This document shows, in pieces, positions 4,037 through 28,930 of a stretch of 64,000 nucleotides of DNA (the stretch's first letter is position 1; each line of letters opens with the position of its first letter). Below the pieces are notes generated by a model, which was not told the DNA's origin, searched no databases, and saw only the letters and a program-made list of their open reading frames with translations. The stretch spans positions 140,085-204,084 of the forward strand of contig CAVXQD010000003.1 of assembly GCA_963763885.1 (NCBI GenBank). Reading direction: 5' to 3'. Source of the stretch: an uncultured Acidimicrobiales bacterium (GTDB taxonomy: Bacteria; Actinomycetota; Acidimicrobiia; Acidimicrobiales; JANYDT01). The position numbers and the translations under genes are program-made.

Positions 4037-4134
4037 ATCGCCGCGAGAGAGGTTGCCCCCACCTGTGGGCGCGGCCGAGTGGTGAGCGGAGGGATCGGAG
4101 CGAATCCGAGGTGAGCAACCCGTCGTTGCTGGGG

Positions 4135-4171
4135 GCAATCCACCTCCTAACGGCGTTGCGAGGTGGATTGC
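4135..4171 (-). terminator. perfect 12-bp inverted repeat 5 nt downstream of the Prx-like gene stop
   Basis: gcaatccacctc (4135-4146) / gaggtggattgc (4160-4171), 13-nt loop. No U-tract, so the terminator role is tentative. Lies between convergent genes. Confidence 0.4.
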
Positions 4172-4175
4172 AGCG

Positions 4176-4652
4176 TTAGTCGCCGAGCTTGGCCAGATGA
4201 CGGCCAAGCTCGCTTGGTTTCACCAAATCCCACTGCTGATTACCAATGGTGTCGAAGGCGACTTTGCCGTCGCTTCCAATGACGAACAGCCCTGGTTGTT
4301 GGCCAAGTGACGCCATGCGGCTGGTGACGTCGTACGCGTCGAAGACGGCTCCGTCTGGGTCCGCGAGCAGCGTGAACGGGTAGTCGTTCGTCAAGAGGTG
4401 CCGGCGCAATCCAACGACTGTGTCTGGGGCGATGGCCACCATGATTGCGCCGTCGGCTGTTAGTGCTTGATGAGCCTCACGCAACTGCGCAAGGTGCTTG
4501 CGGCAAAACGGTCAAAAGAACCCTCTGAGGAAGACCAACACGACCGGCCCGTCTGCGTCCGCCAACCGCCACCGAGTCCCGTCCGCCTGTTCGAGGTCAA
4601 TTGCGGGTGCAACTGCACCCACAGAAGCGGTACGAGAACTCCGAGAAGACAT
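4176..4652 (-). CDS. peroxiredoxin-like (AhpC/TSA, redoxin) protein with in-frame TGA at the catalytic Cys position: candidate selenoprotein, or nonsense pseudogene
   Basis: Reading the minus strand from ATG 4652: MSSRSSRTASVGAVAPAIDLEQADGTRWRLADADGPVVLVFLRGFF-TGA-PFCRKHLAQLREAHQALTADGAIMVAIAP.... The TGA (4514-4512) aligns with the first Cys of the WCPxC/FCPFC redox motif. The ORF track reports only the downstream part (4176..4484). Confidence 0.5.
4475..4494 (-). promoter_or_regulatory. SECIS-like hairpin candidate downstream of the in-frame TGA
   Basis: mRNA nt +18 to +37 after UGA: CCUUGCGC-AGUU-GCGUGAGG. This is 8 bp including 2 G-U pairs, with a 4-nt apical loop that has G at position 2. 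The distance fits bacterial SECIS spacing. An alternative hairpin CGCAAG-CAC-CUUGCG lies at +10 to +24. Confidence 0.3.
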
Positions 4653-4687: not shown

Positions 4688-4767
4688 ACTTCGCGTCCCC
4701 CACGTGCCTTCGCGTCCCCGGAGGGACGACACTGGGGGGACGCGAAGGCACACTGGGGACGCGACGT
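4688..4767. repeat. 32-bp imperfect inverted repeat (28/32) with 16-nt loop in a divergent intergenic region
   Basis: Left arm acttcgcgtcccccacgtgccttcgcgtcccc (4688-4719); right arm ggggacgcgaaggcacactggggacgcgacgt (4736-4767). Each arm holds two copies of the cttcgcgtcccc unit. Confidence 0.85.
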
Positions 4768-4772
4768 CGACC

Positions 4773-4853
4773 GTCGGTTCGTTTGTCAGAGGGCTGGCTG
4801 TCACATCGGTTCGTTTGTCAGAGGAGTTGGCTGTCACATGGTTGGCTGTCACA
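4773..4853. repeat. tandem direct repeats (2 x ~33 bp plus a 15-bp partial unit)
   Basis: tcggttcgtttgtcagagg[gc/agt]tggctgtcaca at 4773-4805 and 4806-4838, then tggttggctgtcaca at 4839-4853. The motif GGCTGTCACA occurs three times. Confidence 0.85.
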
Positions 4854-4875
4854 GGGGTTGGTGCACGATGCGCAC

Positions 4876-7915: not shown

Positions 7916-10735
7916 ATGTCGATCTTCAAGCGGATTCTGCGCGCCGGCGAGGGGAAGAAGGTCCGCGCGCTCGCGGACATCGTCCCCAACATCAACGCGC
8001 TCGAGGCGCAATACGAACGGTTGTCCGACGACGAACTTCGCGGTAAGACCGGCGAGTTCCGTCAGATGTTGGCCAATGGAGCAGACCTCAACGACCTGCT
8101 GATCGATGCGTTTGCCACTACTCGTGAAGCTTCACGTCGTGTCATTGGCCAACGTCACTACGACGTGCAGCTCATGGGCGGCGCCGCGTTGCACTTCGGC
8201 TGGATCGCCGAAATGAAGACAGGTGAAGGCAAGACGCTTGTCTCCACGCTTCCGGTCTACCTCAACGGGCTCACGGGCAAGGGCGTGCACCTCGTGACGG
8301 TGAACGACTACCTGGCCCGCCGTGACGCAGATTGGATGGGCCAAATCCACCGCTGGCTTGGCCTCTCGGTCGGGTTGGTCATCCCGGACGACAGTGACTC
8401 TGCTGCAAAGCGTGCGGCATACGGCTGTGACGTCACGTACTCCACCAACTCTGAGCTTGGTTTCGATTTCCTCCGAGACAACATGGCCATGAGCACCGAA
8501 GACCGTGTGCAGCGTGGCCATTACTTCGCCATCGTCGACGAAGTTGACTCCATCCTCATCGACGAAGCCCGCACACCCCACATCATTTCCGGTCGTGTGG
8601 CAGACGCTGCCAAGTTGTACGTGCAGTTCGCCGCAATCTCTCGCAGCCTCACCCGTGGTACGGACTACGAGGTCGACGAAGAGAAGAAGCAGGTCTTCCC
8701 AACCGAGTCCGGCATCGACAAGGTTGAGGCTGCGTTGGGCGTCGACAACATCTACGACGATCCGTCCGCTGACTTTGTCCATCACCTCAACGCAGCGCTG
8801 CGCGCCAAAGAGTTGTATCGCCGTGACGTGGAGTACCTGGTCCAGGGCGGCGAAGTGAACATCGTCGACGAGTTCACGGGTCGTGTCCTCGAAGGCCGTC
8901 GCTGGTCCGAGGGTCTGCACCAAGCCGTTGAGGCCAAAGAGCGCGTGAAGATCAAGGAAGAGAACCAGACGCTGGCCACAACCACGCTGCAGAATTACTT
9001 CCGTCTCTACGAAAAGCTCGCAGGCATGACCGGTACGGCCGAGACCGAAGCCGGCGAGTTCCACAGCACCTACAGCCTTTCCGTGGTGCCAATCCCAACG
9101 CATCGTCCGTTGGTCCGCCAGGATCAGGCCGACCTTATCTACAAGGGCGAGCGTCCAAAGTTCGATGCGGTCGCAGCAGACATCGCCGAGCGTCACGAGA
9201 AAGGTCAGCCGGTTCTGGTTGGCACGGTTTCGGTTGAAAAGTCCGAGTACCTGTCGCAGCTCCTCACCGAGCGCGGCATTCCCCACTCGGTGCTGAACGC
9301 AAAGCAGCACACCAAGGAAGCCGAGATTGTGGCGCAGGCCGGCCGCATCGGTGCGGTCACGGTTGCCACCAACATGGCAGGCCGCGGCGTCGACATTCTC
9401 CTTGGCGGAAACCCTGACGGGTTGGCCCGTCGCCAGGCAACCGATCAGGGGCATAACCCAGCCCTCCTCGACATGGATCCGGGCGACCCCGCCGTGTTCG
9501 AGCAGCTCGAAGCTGACCCTGACCTTGCAACAGCACGGCGTGCAGCGCTTGATGCGCTCGAAAAGGCCAAGGCACACTTCGTCGAAGACTGCGCCAGCGA
9601 AGGCAAGCAGGTCAGGGAACTCGGCGGCTTGTACGTGCTTGCCACCGAACGACACGAGAGCCGCCGCATCGACAACCAGTTGCGTGGTCGTGCCGGCCGT
9701 CAGGGCGACCCAGGCGAAAGTCGTTTCTACCTGTCCTTGGACGACGACCTCATGCGGTTGTTCGCCACGGGCGCAATGAACTGGGTCATGGGACGTGCGC
9801 TTCCTGACGACGTGCCAATCGAAGCGAAGATGGTCAGCAAGGCCATCGAGCGCGCACAGTCAACGGTTGAAGGCCGCAACGCCGAAATCCGTAAGAACGT
9901 CCTCAAGTACGACGAGGTCATGAACGAGCAACGCAAGGTCATCTACGCCAAGCGAAACCAGGTCCTCACCGGAGGCGACGTCGACGAGGTGCTGCGCCGC
10001 AACATTGACACGGTTGTCGAAGACATGGTCGAGCGCAACTGCCCAACAGAAGCCTCCGACGAGTGGAACTTGGAGAACCTGCTGGCCGATGCGCAGGGCA
10101 TGTTCCCCACCGAGTTCTCGTTAGAGGACTTGGGCCAGGCCCGCTCGCGCAAGCAGCTCATCGAGTCCTTGCAGACCGAGGCACACGAGTTCTATACGGC
10201 CAAGGAAGCAAAGCTTGGTTCCGAAGTTGCACGAGACGTGGAACGCAACGTGTTTCTCAGCATCATCGACCAACGCTGGCGTGAACACCTCGCAGACATG
10301 GACTACCTCCAAGAGGGCATCCATCTCCGCGCAATGGGTCAAAAAGATCCGTTGGTCGAATGGCAACGAGACGGCTTTGCTGCGTTCGGCAACCTCATGG
10401 CCACCATCGAGGCAGACTTCGTGCGGTATTGCATGCACGCAGAGGTTGTTGTGGAGTCCCACGCCCCAACAATCGAAGACATTTCCTACGTGTCTGGTGA
10501 TGAAGGCGAAGCGCCAGAGCGTCTCACCGGTCTCATCGGCGCCGACGTCGCGCAGCTGTTGGCAGCGCAGGACGATGATGTCGAGGTCTCCGAAGATGGC
10601 CTTGTCACACGGATTGCGGAGGACGAACCCGCATCGCAAACCCCGCTCGTCAAGTCCGACCACGAGAAGCTGGGTCGTAACGACCCTTGCTGGTGCGACA
10701 GCGGCAAGAAGTTCAAGCTCTGTCACGGGCGCTGA
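7916..10735 (+). CDS. secA: preprotein translocase ATPase SecA
   Basis: MSIFKRILRAGEGKKVRAL..., Walker A MKTGEGKTL, DEVDSILIDEARTPHIISG, C-terminal zinc motif CWCDSGKKFKLCHGR. The ORF extends upstream to 7580 only as an antisense overlap with adh. Confidence 0.95.
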   Translation: MSIFKRILRAGEGKKVRALADIVPNINALEAQYERLSDDELRGKTGEFRQMLANGADLNDLLIDAFATTREASRRVIGQRHYDVQLMGGAALHFGWIAEMKTGEGKTLVSTLPVYLNGLTGKGVHLVTVNDYLARRDADWMGQIHRWLGLSVGLVIPDDSDSAAKRAAYGCDVTYSTNSELGFDFLRDNMAMSTEDRVQRGHYFAIVDEVDSILIDEARTPHIISGRVADAAKLYVQFAAISRSLTRGTDYEVDEEKKQVFPTESGIDKVEAALGVDNIYDDPSADFVHHLNAALRAKELYRRDVEYLVQGGEVNIVDEFTGRVLEGRRWSEGLHQAVEAKERVKIKEENQTLATTTLQNYFRLYEKLAGMTGTAETEAGEFHSTYSLSVVPIPTHRPLVRQDQADLIYKGERPKFDAVAADIAERHEKGQPVLVGTVSVEKSEYLSQLLTERGIPHSVLNAKQHTKEAEIVAQAGRIGAVTVATNMAGRGVDILLGGNPDGLARRQATDQGHNPALLDMDPGDPAVFEQLEADPDLATARRAALDALEKAKAHFVEDCASEGKQVRELGGLYVLATERHESRRIDNQLRGRAGRQGDPGESRFYLSLDDDLMRLFATGAMNWVMGRALPDDVPIEAKMVSKAIERAQSTVEGRNAEIRKNVLKYDEVMNEQRKVIYAKRNQVLTGGDVDEVLRRNIDTVVEDMVERNCPTEASDEWNLENLLADAQGMFPTEFSLEDLGQARSRKQLIESLQTEAHEFYTAKEAKLGSEVARDVERNVFLSIIDQRWREHLADMDYLQEGIHLRAMGQKDPLVEWQRDGFAAFGNLMATIEADFVRYCMHAEVVVESHAPTIEDISYVSGDEGEAPERLTGLIGADVAQLLAAQDDDVEVSEDGLVTRIAEDEPASQTPLVKSDHEKLGRNDPCWCDSGKKFKLCHGR

Positions 10736-10768
10736 GCGAAACCCACCAACCACACCGGATCCATTGCC

Positions 10769-11884
10769 ATGTTGAGAGATCATGCTGACGCGCTCGTTGC
10801 CGAACGAGCGCGCCTGCGCGAAGCCGAAAACTATTTAGGCTTCGACCGACTCAAGACAGAGTTTGTGCGGCTCGAGACAGAACTGGCCCGACCAGACCTG
10901 TGGGATGACCCCGAGATCGGCCGCAAGGTTGGCGCGCAGTACGCAACCGTGAAGGACGATCTCGAGTCGCTCACCGGTGTGGCCCGTCACCTCGACGACG
11001 CTGACACGCTCCTGGAGCTTGGCACAGAGATGGAAGACGAGTCCCTCGAGCCCGAGCTGCTGGAACATGTTGCAGCGGCTCGCAAGGTGCTGGAAGAACT
11101 CGAGCTGCGCAGCTTGTTTACGGGTGAGTACGACGAGGGCGACGCTATCTTCGAAATCCACTCCGGCGCAGGGGGCGTCGATGCGCAGGACTGGGCCGAA
11201 ATGCTGCTGCGTATGTATGTGCGCTGGGGAGAGCGGCGCGGCTTCGAAGTTGAAATCGAGTCCGTTGCCGAGGGTGCCGAAGCCGGCATCACAACTGCCA
11301 TTCTCATCGTTAAAGGTAGGTACGCATACGGTCTGTTGTCGGCCGAACGTGGTGTGCACCGCCTCGTTCGTATCTCGCCATTCGATCAGCAAGCGCGCAG
11401 ACAAACGTCGTTCGCCGGCGTGTCGCTCACGCCGGTCATCGAGGACGCCACGTCCAAGGTGAACATCGATGAAAAAGACCTCCGCGTCGACGTGTTCCGA
11501 TCATCTGGCGCTGGTGGTCAGCACGTCAACACAACGGACTCGGCCGTTCGTATGACCCACATCCCCACGGGCATCGTTGTCAGCTGCCAGATCGAGCGCA
11601 GCCAGATTCAGAACCGTGCACGGGCGATGGACATGTTGGCGGCGAAACTTATCGAGCGTCAGCGTCAAGAGCGAGACCAGATGATGGCAGACATCACTGG
11701 CCCTCAGAAGGAAGCTGCGTGGGGCAACCAGATCCGCTCCTACGTGCTTGCGCCGTACCAAATGGTCAAGGACCTCCGCACCGAGCACGAGGTTGGTACA
11801 CCTGCCGACGTGCTCGACGGTGACATCGACGGGTTCATTGAATCGTGGCTGCGATGGCGTCGAGCCAACGAGCCCGCGGCGTGA
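10769..11884 (+). CDS. prfB: peptide chain release factor 2
   Basis: RF2-specific SPF motif (RISPFDQQARRQTSFAGV) and GGQ motif (SGAGGQHVNTTDSAVRMTHIPTGIVV). A single uninterrupted 371-codon frame. Confidence 0.93.
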   Translation: MLRDHADALVAERARLREAENYLGFDRLKTEFVRLETELARPDLWDDPEIGRKVGAQYATVKDDLESLTGVARHLDDADTLLELGTEMEDESLEPELLEHVAAARKVLEELELRSLFTGEYDEGDAIFEIHSGAGGVDAQDWAEMLLRMYVRWGERRGFEVEIESVAEGAEAGITTAILIVKGRYAYGLLSAERGVHRLVRISPFDQQARRQTSFAGVSLTPVIEDATSKVNIDEKDLRVDVFRSSGAGGQHVNTTDSAVRMTHIPTGIVVSCQIERSQIQNRARAMDMLAAKLIERQRQERDQMMADITGPQKEAAWGNQIRSYVLAPYQMVKDLRTEHEVGTPADVLDGDIDGFIESWLRWRRANEPAA

Positions 11885-28580: not shown

Positions 28581-28930
28581 GGGGGTGCCTGGTTTCGACC
28601 TTGGTAGTCAACGCAGGTGAAGCGAGCCGTGGTCTCCGGATCCACGTAAAAGAGTCGGAAAACAAACACAAACGCCAACGACAACGTTGCGCTCGCAGCC
28701 TAAATAACTGCGATGTCGGTCTGGCCCCGGTTCCTCGGGCCAGCCGCCGGCACTATCTAGAGGGACTTACTCAGACGCAGTGCTCATGGGCGGCTGAGGA
28801 CATTAAGTGAGCTGGGGCCCTCCGGAGTTGCCGGTGTCGAGGGAGGACCCGAGATCTCTCCACCGGCTGCGCTCGGAGAAGCCCTGCTGCGAAGCTGAGG
28901 GACGGGGGTTCGATTCCCCCCACCTCCACC
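28581..28930 (+). ncRNA. ssrA: transfer-messenger RNA (tmRNA)
   Basis: 5' GGGGGUGCCUGGUUUCGAC pairs with 3' CACCUCC-A-CC, including a G3:U pair. T-arm GGGGGUUCGAUUCCCCC. Internal tag frame ends ...GCC AAC GAC AAC GTT GCG CTC GCA GCC TAA (..ANDNVALAA*, 28674-28703). Confidence 0.9.

Follow-up and report, generated by a model that had tools for sequence, protein, structure and literature searches.

Does the in-frame UGA in a small redox gene of an uncultured Acidimicrobiales bacterium terminate translation, or does it encode selenocysteine (Sec)? The gene lies on the minus strand near the beginning of a 64 kb stretch of contig CAVXQD010000003.1 (the window, analysed here at its full length) and was put forward in an earlier note, made from the letters alone, as a candidate selenoprotein. 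We find this proposal supported, because TGA is kept across the whole family, selection acts on both halves of the gene, Sec pairs with Cys in alignments with homologues, and a hairpin just downstream of the codon covaries. UGA47 is very probably a genuine Sec codon, and the gene that of a small thioredoxin-fold redox protein. The locus would then encode a cytoplasmic protein of 158 residues with a thioredoxin fold, belonging to the AhpC/TSA superfamily, with the UGA of codon 47 recoded to Sec. The parts of the gene that matter for the argument are as follows:

4176–4652, minus strand: complete coding sequence of the peroxiredoxin-like (Prx-like) candidate selenoprotein gene, 158 sense codons including Sec47, then TAA at 4178–4176.
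4512–4514, minus strand: in-frame UGA, codon 47, the proposed Sec codon; TGA in 105/105 loci, and aligned with Cys of distant homologues.
4503–4514, minus strand: predicted U-P-F-C redox motif (Sec47, Pro48, Phe49, Cys50) at the N-terminus of helix α1.
4482–4484, minus strand: TTG (Leu57), the false start chosen by gene callers, which spans the 3' end of the hairpin loop and the base that opens the 3' arm of the stem.
4293–4295, minus strand: Pro120 in the invariant SLGQ[QR]P motif, at the cis-Pro position of thioredoxin-fold CxxC oxidoreductases; Arg in true peroxiredoxins.

The frame starts at ATG 4652–4650 on the minus strand and its sole internal stop is TGA 4514–4512, codon 47. The start, the length of 158 codons to 4176 and the position of the TGA had all been described correctly in the earlier note, as had the alternative start at TTG 4484, which in the list of open reading frames (ORFs) opens a 102-aa ORF (4176–4484) annotated as a shortened 'peroxiredoxin'. 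The DNA around the codon reads DGPVVLVFLRGFF-TGA-PFCRKHLAQLREAHQAL and the corresponding protein FLRGFF-U-PFC-RKHLAQLRE. With Cys put in place of the stop, Pfam identifies AhpC-TSA (pfam00578) over residues 11–132 (E = 1.2e-24; score 87 bits, cut-off 26), and a single domain therefore spans the TGA. By inspection of the translation, the N-terminus (MSSRSSRTASVGAVAPAIDLEQ) has no hydrophobic segment, and the protein has neither a signal peptide nor a transmembrane segment.

How is this codon treated in relatives? We assembled 105 related sequences from metagenome-assembled genomes (MAGs) of Acidimicrobiia/Actinomycetota and from metagenomes, at about 33–83% identity, and the homologous codon is TGA in every one of the 105 loci, never another stop and never a sense codon (18/18 loci from genomes, 80/80 from metagenomes and 7/7 among divergent representatives). 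The 17 Acidimicrobiia/Actinomycetota MAG loci, at 45–71% identity, have a stop at the homologous codon that is TGA each time. The metagenome loci are 80 examined among at least 261 matched, and the divergent representatives were obtained by an exhaustive HMMER search with residues 48–158, being 33–40% identical over the C-terminal part. An alignment of orthologues at this codon, suggested beforehand as a check, thus gives TGA in 105/105, with Cys only in more distant full-length homologues; among the relatives there is no Cys form above about 40% identity. The UGA is followed by CC in all the genome and metagenome loci. At the true end of the gene the stop varies, TAA, TAG and TGA all being used among the genome loci, while complete metagenomic copies end in TGA (36), TAG (28) or TAA (3).

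The mean proportions of non-synonymous and synonymous differences (pN/pS, Nei-Gojobori) are 0.33/0.62 upstream of the TGA and 0.26/0.57 downstream, and purifying selection of similar strength acts on both halves of the gene. Orthologues keep the start codon and the N-terminal peptide MSxRSS, and no further stops or frameshifts are found in the orthologous loci. In databases, the gene appears in pieces: about 40 close homologues retrieved by protein search all have lengths of 86–106 aa and match no more than the C-terminal ~64% of the query, and two more 'hypothetical proteins' stop exactly at …FLRGFF. About 40 database homologues of 100–106 aa, P0002 among them, begin at the TTG of Leu57. Gene callers split the gene at the same place throughout the databases, taking the UGA as a stop. 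Two irregular sequences were met along the way. P0053 (175 aa) has the motif VFLRG-PFW-RRHL, with FxU deleted, Trp for Cys and an aberrant C-terminus, and is possibly a decayed copy of a Sec-type gene. Locus L011 (JANPAY010000328.1) is a 1.8-kb contig in a 'Comamonadaceae' MAG, with a gene one amino acid off that of the Acidimicrobiia MAG locus L010, and is likely a binning contaminant.

What could direct Sec to this codon? The earlier note had pointed to a hairpin 18–37 nt downstream of the UGA with a G-containing apical loop, and such a hairpin is present, resembling a selenocysteine insertion sequence (SECIS), although only the upper six of its eight base pairs are conserved in the family:

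4475–4494, minus strand: SECIS-like hairpin CCUUGCGC-AGUU-GCGUGAGG, at +18 to +37 after the UGA, with an 8-bp stem in this sequence.
4492–4487 paired with 4482–4477, minus strand: conserved 6-bp core of the hairpin, closed by the apical loop AGUU at 4486–4483.

The family consensus has 6 bp and an xGUU loop 25 nt after the UGA, with the loop G-U at 27–28 nt. Taken alone, the hairpin has a folding energy of −10.6 kcal/mol (z = −3.5), and none of 200 shuffled sequences is as stable. A small apical loop with a G is an accepted feature of bacterial SECIS elements (PMC1088965), and both the spacing of the predicted hairpin and the invariant G-U in its 4-nt loop match the accepted features (PMC1088965). 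The codons themselves carry the mark of an overlapping constraint: over the 13 codons after the TGA, codon entropy in invariant amino-acid columns is 0.49 vs 1.15 elsewhere (Mann-Whitney p = 0.002, 18 genome sequences). Over the hairpin Ala-GCG, Gln-CAG and the otherwise rare Leu-TTG are invariant, and the only wobble (C/U) sits opposite G. The Leu57 codon is TTG in 18/18 genome sequences, other invariant Leu columns being mostly CTN.

RNAalifold recovers the 6-bp stem with its AGUU loop. In the first 17 genome sequences alone only one-sided changes occur and covariation is not significant. In the alignment of 94 sequences, 93 of them distinct, 98.9% of cells are paired, both-sided changes are found at 4/6 pairs, and five covariation measures all beat 500/500 column shuffles as well as all slid controls, two of these measures being robust to phylogeny. 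At one pair a swap from C-G to G-C combines a synonymous Leu change with a change from D/E to Q/H; it is seen in one clade and also in two sequences that have C-G in their closest relatives, and must therefore represent at least two to three independent events. Three more distant loci depart further from the consensus while sharing the register of the family core. In L110 (CUCCGCC-AGUU-GGCGGAG) three pairs are flipped and HLAQLRE becomes HLRQLAE via mirrored GCG/CGC swaps, L104 (UCCGGC-GGUU-GUCGGA) has two flipped pairs and one G-U, and L106 carries AUGGCGC-AGUU-GCGCCAG. In L107 (399–450) the family hairpin is missing and another 6-bp hairpin, CAGUUG-GUC-CAACUG, is found 4 nt nearer the UGA, which looks like SECIS turnover within the family. 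The codon equivalent to Leu57 is CTG in L107, and the loop of L032 is AGCU. Judged from these alignments, compensatory substitutions maintain the downstream hairpin at a fixed spacing. Three other near-matches to the hairpin core in the window have no TGA upstream and were set aside.

The residue expected at the UGA can be read from full-length homologues. P0065, with VFLRGFGCPFCCRHL…SLGQRP…GWQQWEIP, is a full-length Cys homologue (37% identity, E = 1e-30), and the site aligned with the TGA lies in CPFC in P0061, P0067, P0129 and P0076 and in CPYC in P0099 and P0046. Among solved structures, ResA thiol-disulfide oxidoreductases come closest in sequence (E = 2e-9), and in them the TGA aligns with the N-terminal nucleophilic Cys of CxxC and QQ-P120-GLF with the cis-Pro loop. 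As a structural proxy for the Sec protein we used the AlphaFold (AF2) model of the Cys orthologue P0065 (predicted local distance difference test score, pLDDT, 93), where Cys39 N-caps helix α1 (residues 40–51). Foldseek matches this model to BCP/PrxQ with TM-scores of 0.87–0.91 (Sulfolobus Bcp1/Bcp4) and to ResA with about 0.8.

To which class does the protein then belong? True Prx homologues have TPGC, TPIC or SPVC at this site, plus an Arg ahead of a β-strand. Compared with them, the family has U for Thr, Cys at the position of the peroxidatic Cys and Pro for the catalytic Arg: Pro120, invariant in the family, falls on the Arg that P0043, P0088 and P0132, homologues of the BCP type, have here. 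At position −4 of the motif R43-G-F-F-U-P-F-C stands R43, where true Prx have Pro. The placing of the TGA at the first Cys of a CxxC motif in the earlier note is therefore right for CxxC-type members (ResA and the CPFC/CPYC proteins), while in genuine peroxiredoxins the position is taken by Thr (TxxC). Likewise, the description of the product as peroxiredoxin-like with a redox-active Cys is good for the Prx-like fold and the AhpC-TSA domain but not for the PxxxTxxC/Arg signature, which is missing from this CxxC-type oxidoreductase. Since the Prx signature is missing while a CxxC-type motif and cis-Pro are present, we assign the predicted protein as a UxxC (CxxC-type) thiol:disulfide oxidoreductase with a Prx-like, BCP/ResA-like fold, and not as a canonical peroxiredoxin.

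Existing family models were tried as homes for the protein. The top NCBIfam match is the SelL-related redox protein NF040769 (E = 6e-18), and we rejected it at 65.1 bits against a cut-off of 120 and with partial coverage (residues 15–110 only). ResA/TlpA was rejected at 41 bits against a cut-off of 170 (NF002854) and without an extracytoplasmic anchor. The canonical peroxiredoxins (BCP/PrxQ and PrxU) are ruled out, as the protein is without the PxxxT/SxxC(U) motif and the catalytic Arg, and the models stay below their cut-offs (NF040737 for PrxU, 23 bits vs 270; NF006960, 35 vs 140). Among distant multidomain relatives, mostly with tandem AhpC/TSA domains, P0099 (309 aa) has a genuine BCP/PrxQ domain (TPGC) to which a Prx-like domain of the Cys type (CPYC) is fused N-terminally. 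This fusion is a possible, weak hint of the Rosetta-stone type that the CxxC/UxxC domain serves a peroxiredoxin by recycling it.

Several results weigh against a Sec codon or soften its support. The total minimum free energy of the 60-nt context is not better than that of shuffles (z = 0.18), and no SECIS model of Rfam matches at the gathering or at a permissive threshold. One of the two baits in the metagenome scan, the peptide pattern CR[RK]HLAQLR, overlaps the hairpin and so enriches sequences with the canonical hairpin; the divergent hairpin cases came from a separate protein search and are independent of the metagenome baits. Neither in the 64 kb window nor in related loci of ~330 kb altogether was selA, selB or selD detected by tblastn with E. 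coli (NC_000913) SelA, SelB and SelD, ARAGORN found no tRNA-Sec in the window or in the fetched related loci, and no second selenoprotein gene is evident in the window. The residual doubt about the Sec codon concerns almost entirely this machinery, the search for which covered the window and related loci. From elsewhere in the class, complete selA/B/C/D have been described in all genomes of Actinomarina, of the order Actinomarinales (preprint 10.64898/2026.04.03.716425), and the Sec trait therefore exists within Acidimicrobiia.

These searches also produced candidates that we discarded. The 93-nt 'tRNA-Glu (ctc)' called by ARAGORN at L039 (3224–3316) was rejected as tRNA-Sec because its anticodon is not UCA, and is probably a false positive in GC-rich, coding-like sequence. 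A scan of the window for TGA-interrupted frames gave 362 mechanical candidates, and ten of these, picked because their flanking frames were long and their base composition resembled that of coding DNA, turned out on inspection to be adjacent genes (acyl-CoA synthetase and hydrolase, FtsE and FtsX) or non-coding frames.

Could the UGA be read, but not as Sec? In SelB-independent read-through a near-cognate tRNA (Trp or Cys) would suppress the UGA in a weak UGA-C context, the hairpin would act only as a stimulator, and the product would be a non-selenoprotein. In keeping with this, no Sec machinery was found in the window or the related loci searched and the UGA is always followed by CC, but homologues hold Cys at the site and not Trp, and if Cys were intended some TGC or TGT would be expected, of which there are 0 among 105 sequences. 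A hairpin 19 nt downstream is also not known as a stimulator of read-through in bacteria. The spacing and the invariant loop G-U fit a bacterial SECIS instead (PMC1088965), and we consider read-through of this kind improbable.

If, on the other hand, the UGA were a genuine stop, as in the current database annotation, the locus would produce a 46-aa N-terminal peptide and/or a 102-aa C-terminal protein from TTG 4484. Gene callers do annotate this split everywhere and the TTG is invariant among close relatives. The split, however, would cut through the β1-α1 active-site unit of a single thioredoxin-fold domain, with one Pfam domain spanning the stop, and no Shine-Dalgarno sequence is found ahead of the TTG. 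The invariance of the TTG is explained by its place in the hairpin loop and stem; the codon is CTG in L107, and L032 has an AGCU loop. Moreover, a stop has no need to be TGA in 105/105 sequences, and the compensatory changes keep a hairpin, not a ribosome-binding site. Termination at this codon is, in our view, very improbable. The truncated product from TTG 4484 and a TGC-to-TGA pseudogene were the alternatives considered in the earlier note, and the conservation pattern contradicts both.

A sequencing error, or a pseudogene in which a decaying Prx-like gene has gone from TGC to TGA by nonsense mutation, would agree with TGA being a single transition from a Cys codon and with Sec machinery not being seen in the window, but 105 independent contigs, drawn from many samples, all have the identical TGA, extra stops and frameshifts are missing, both sides are under purifying selection and synteny is kept. 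We give hardly any credence to either, and the comparative data in effect refute the pseudogene. In the source genome UGA serves as an ordinary stop: secA ends in TGA and prfB, encoding RF2 with its SPF motif, occupies 10769–11884. A lineage-wide change of the code, with UGA as a sense codon (e.g. Trp or Gly), has nothing specific in its favour and a negligible probability, given that UGA ends secA and 36/67 orthologues of the candidate selenoprotein gene, that RF2, the reader of UGA, is encoded here, and that the gene has a single internal UGA. The family-wide TGA, the varied terminators, the selection and the UGA ending secA beside the RF2 gene therefore exclude a pseudogene, a sequencing error and a change of the code.

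With UGA47 taken as a Sec codon, how could the gene be decoded and what would its product do? SelB-driven insertion, the catalytic cycle and the physiological substrate are all inferred here. SelB-GTP with Sec-tRNA(Sec) would be tethered by the hairpin starting about 18–19 nt past UGA47 and would deliver Sec at this codon in competition with RF2. The product would have its U47-P-F-C50 centre at the N-terminus of helix α1, with Sec47 as the exposed nucleophile. Sec47 would attack a disulfide, or a peroxide in the manner of glutathione peroxidase (GPx), and form a selenenylsulfide with Cys50, to be recycled by a thioredoxin-type reductant. The enzyme might be a Sec peroxidase that works like GPx, or it might be devoted to reducing BCP-type peroxiredoxins, a role at which the fusion in P0099 hints.

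As a cistron the gene stands alone: a comF-like gene diverges from it, and a Trm112-like ORF and ahcY converge on it. The order prfB-secA-ADH-HPF-comF-[gene]-Trm112-ahcY is kept in relatives of 73–75% identity, the neighbours differ in other clades, and analysis of the neighbourhood and of fusions gave no specific functional partner. The intergenic region between the gene and the divergent comF-like gene is densely filled with repeats (4688–4767 and 4774–4862). They comprise nested inverted repeats with 32-nt arms (4688–4719 and 4736–4767, 88% complementary), units of 19 nt in tandem, and two direct repeats, one perfect and 19 nt long (TCGGTTCGTTTGTCAGAGG, at 4774 and 4806) and one of 31 nt (at 4784 and 4832). 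The repeats over 4688–4862 could be an operator or other regulatory region, or a small repetitive element. At the other end of the gene, an 11-bp perfect inverted repeat, CGAGCTTGGCC…GGCCAAGCTCG (4184–4212), lies within the last 12 codons and encodes SELGRHLAKLG. Just past the TAA, at 4128–4174 on the minus strand, a very stable hairpin with a stem of 12–15 bp (−25.4 kcal/mol, z = −4.9, 0/200 shuffles) separates the gene from the convergent Trm112-like and ahcY genes. It has no U-tract and probably terminates transcription in both directions.

Further away, at 10733–10771, the TGA of secA is followed 33 nt on, in the same frame, by prfB, which is one unbroken frame of 371 codons and shows no trace of the programmed +1 frameshift site that prfB commonly has in bacteria. 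A gene for tmRNA at 28581–28930 on the plus strand (tag ANDNVALAA) is the only RNA gene found in the window.

What follows if Sec is restored to this gene? Every database entry that we found is either a ~100-aa 'peroxiredoxin' without an active site or an orphan N-terminal fragment, and once the Sec codon is recognised, over 100 genomes and metagenomes regain a complete redox enzyme. The gene would mark Acidimicrobiia lineages as selenium users, which bears on the trace-element ecology of soils and groundwater, and its compact, covariation-supported actinobacterial SECIS could be used to find further selenoproteins in such genomes and to test the specificity of SelB. No new principle is involved, as both UxxC Prx-like selenoproteins and SECIS hairpins within coding regions are well established. 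What is new is a large, strictly Sec-retaining Acidimicrobiia clade, its universal misannotation and a well-supported SECIS. Our literature search found no description of the Acidimicrobiia family, and we see the chances as evenly balanced that it represents an undescribed, strictly Sec-retaining PRX-like/ResA-like clade across uncultured Acidimicrobiia of soil, sediment and groundwater. If so, Sec decoding would extend widely through a class from which only marine Actinomarina have been reported to possess it until now, and the family would offer an unusually clean natural case of a SECIS dictating the peptide that it overlaps, H-L-A-Q-L-R turning into H-L-R-Q-L-A through mirrored codon swaps.

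Among known systems, the hairpin can be compared with the fdhF-type SECIS of E. coli: both lie within the coding region directly 3' of the UGA, and both have an upper stem that is short and rich in G-C and a small apical loop with G-U (PMC1088965). It differs in the position of the loop G, which is at +27 from the A of the UGA here and at roughly +20 in fdhF, and no bulged U is evident. For the protein, BCP/PrxQ and the Sec-peroxiredoxin PrxU (TxxU) have the same overall fold and Pfam family, but in PrxU Sec replaces the peroxidatic Cys at the second position of the motif, whereas here Sec would come first. In ResA/TlpA/CcmG, U falls on the nucleophilic N-terminal Cys and the cis-Pro loop is conserved; ResA is, however, membrane-anchored and extracytoplasmic and has WCxxC, in contrast to the present protein with its BCP-like insertion TSRMASLGQQ. 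The SelL-related proteins (NF040769) and selenoprotein L of the PRX_like2 group share the Prx-like thioredoxin fold and a redox motif at the same position, but eukaryotic SelL has UxxU and the protein described here UxxC.

The nearest relatives in kind are the 'Prx-like thiol:disulfide oxidoreductase' selenoproteins, defined by pfam00578 together with UxxC or UxxU (PMC9312934); those with pfam00578 and UxxC are a recognised family (PMC9312934, PMC13188914, PMC2398784). Prx-like selenoproteins have been known since 2004 and are described as predicted with high confidence, an example being Geobacter sulfurreducens WP_010940744.1 (Kryukov & Gladyshev 2004); 225 sequences of 'Prx-like 1' were counted in the Global Ocean Sampling (GOS) data, and the Prx-like family in 28 organisms of a 2016 survey. 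The predicted protein is a member of this group by the definition of pfam00578 plus UxxC. It has in common with the group the AhpC-TSA domain, a UxxC motif with Sec first, CxxC in Cys homologues, a SECIS immediately 3' of the codon and a function known by prediction only. The group is familiar mainly from Deltaproteobacteria, Clostridia and marine metagenomes, whereas the present clade belongs to Acidimicrobiia/Actinomycetota of soil, sediment and groundwater and carries a signature of its own, FLRG[FY]xUPFCR[RK]HLAQLR, AYDVTSRMxSLGQ[QR]P and GxQQW.

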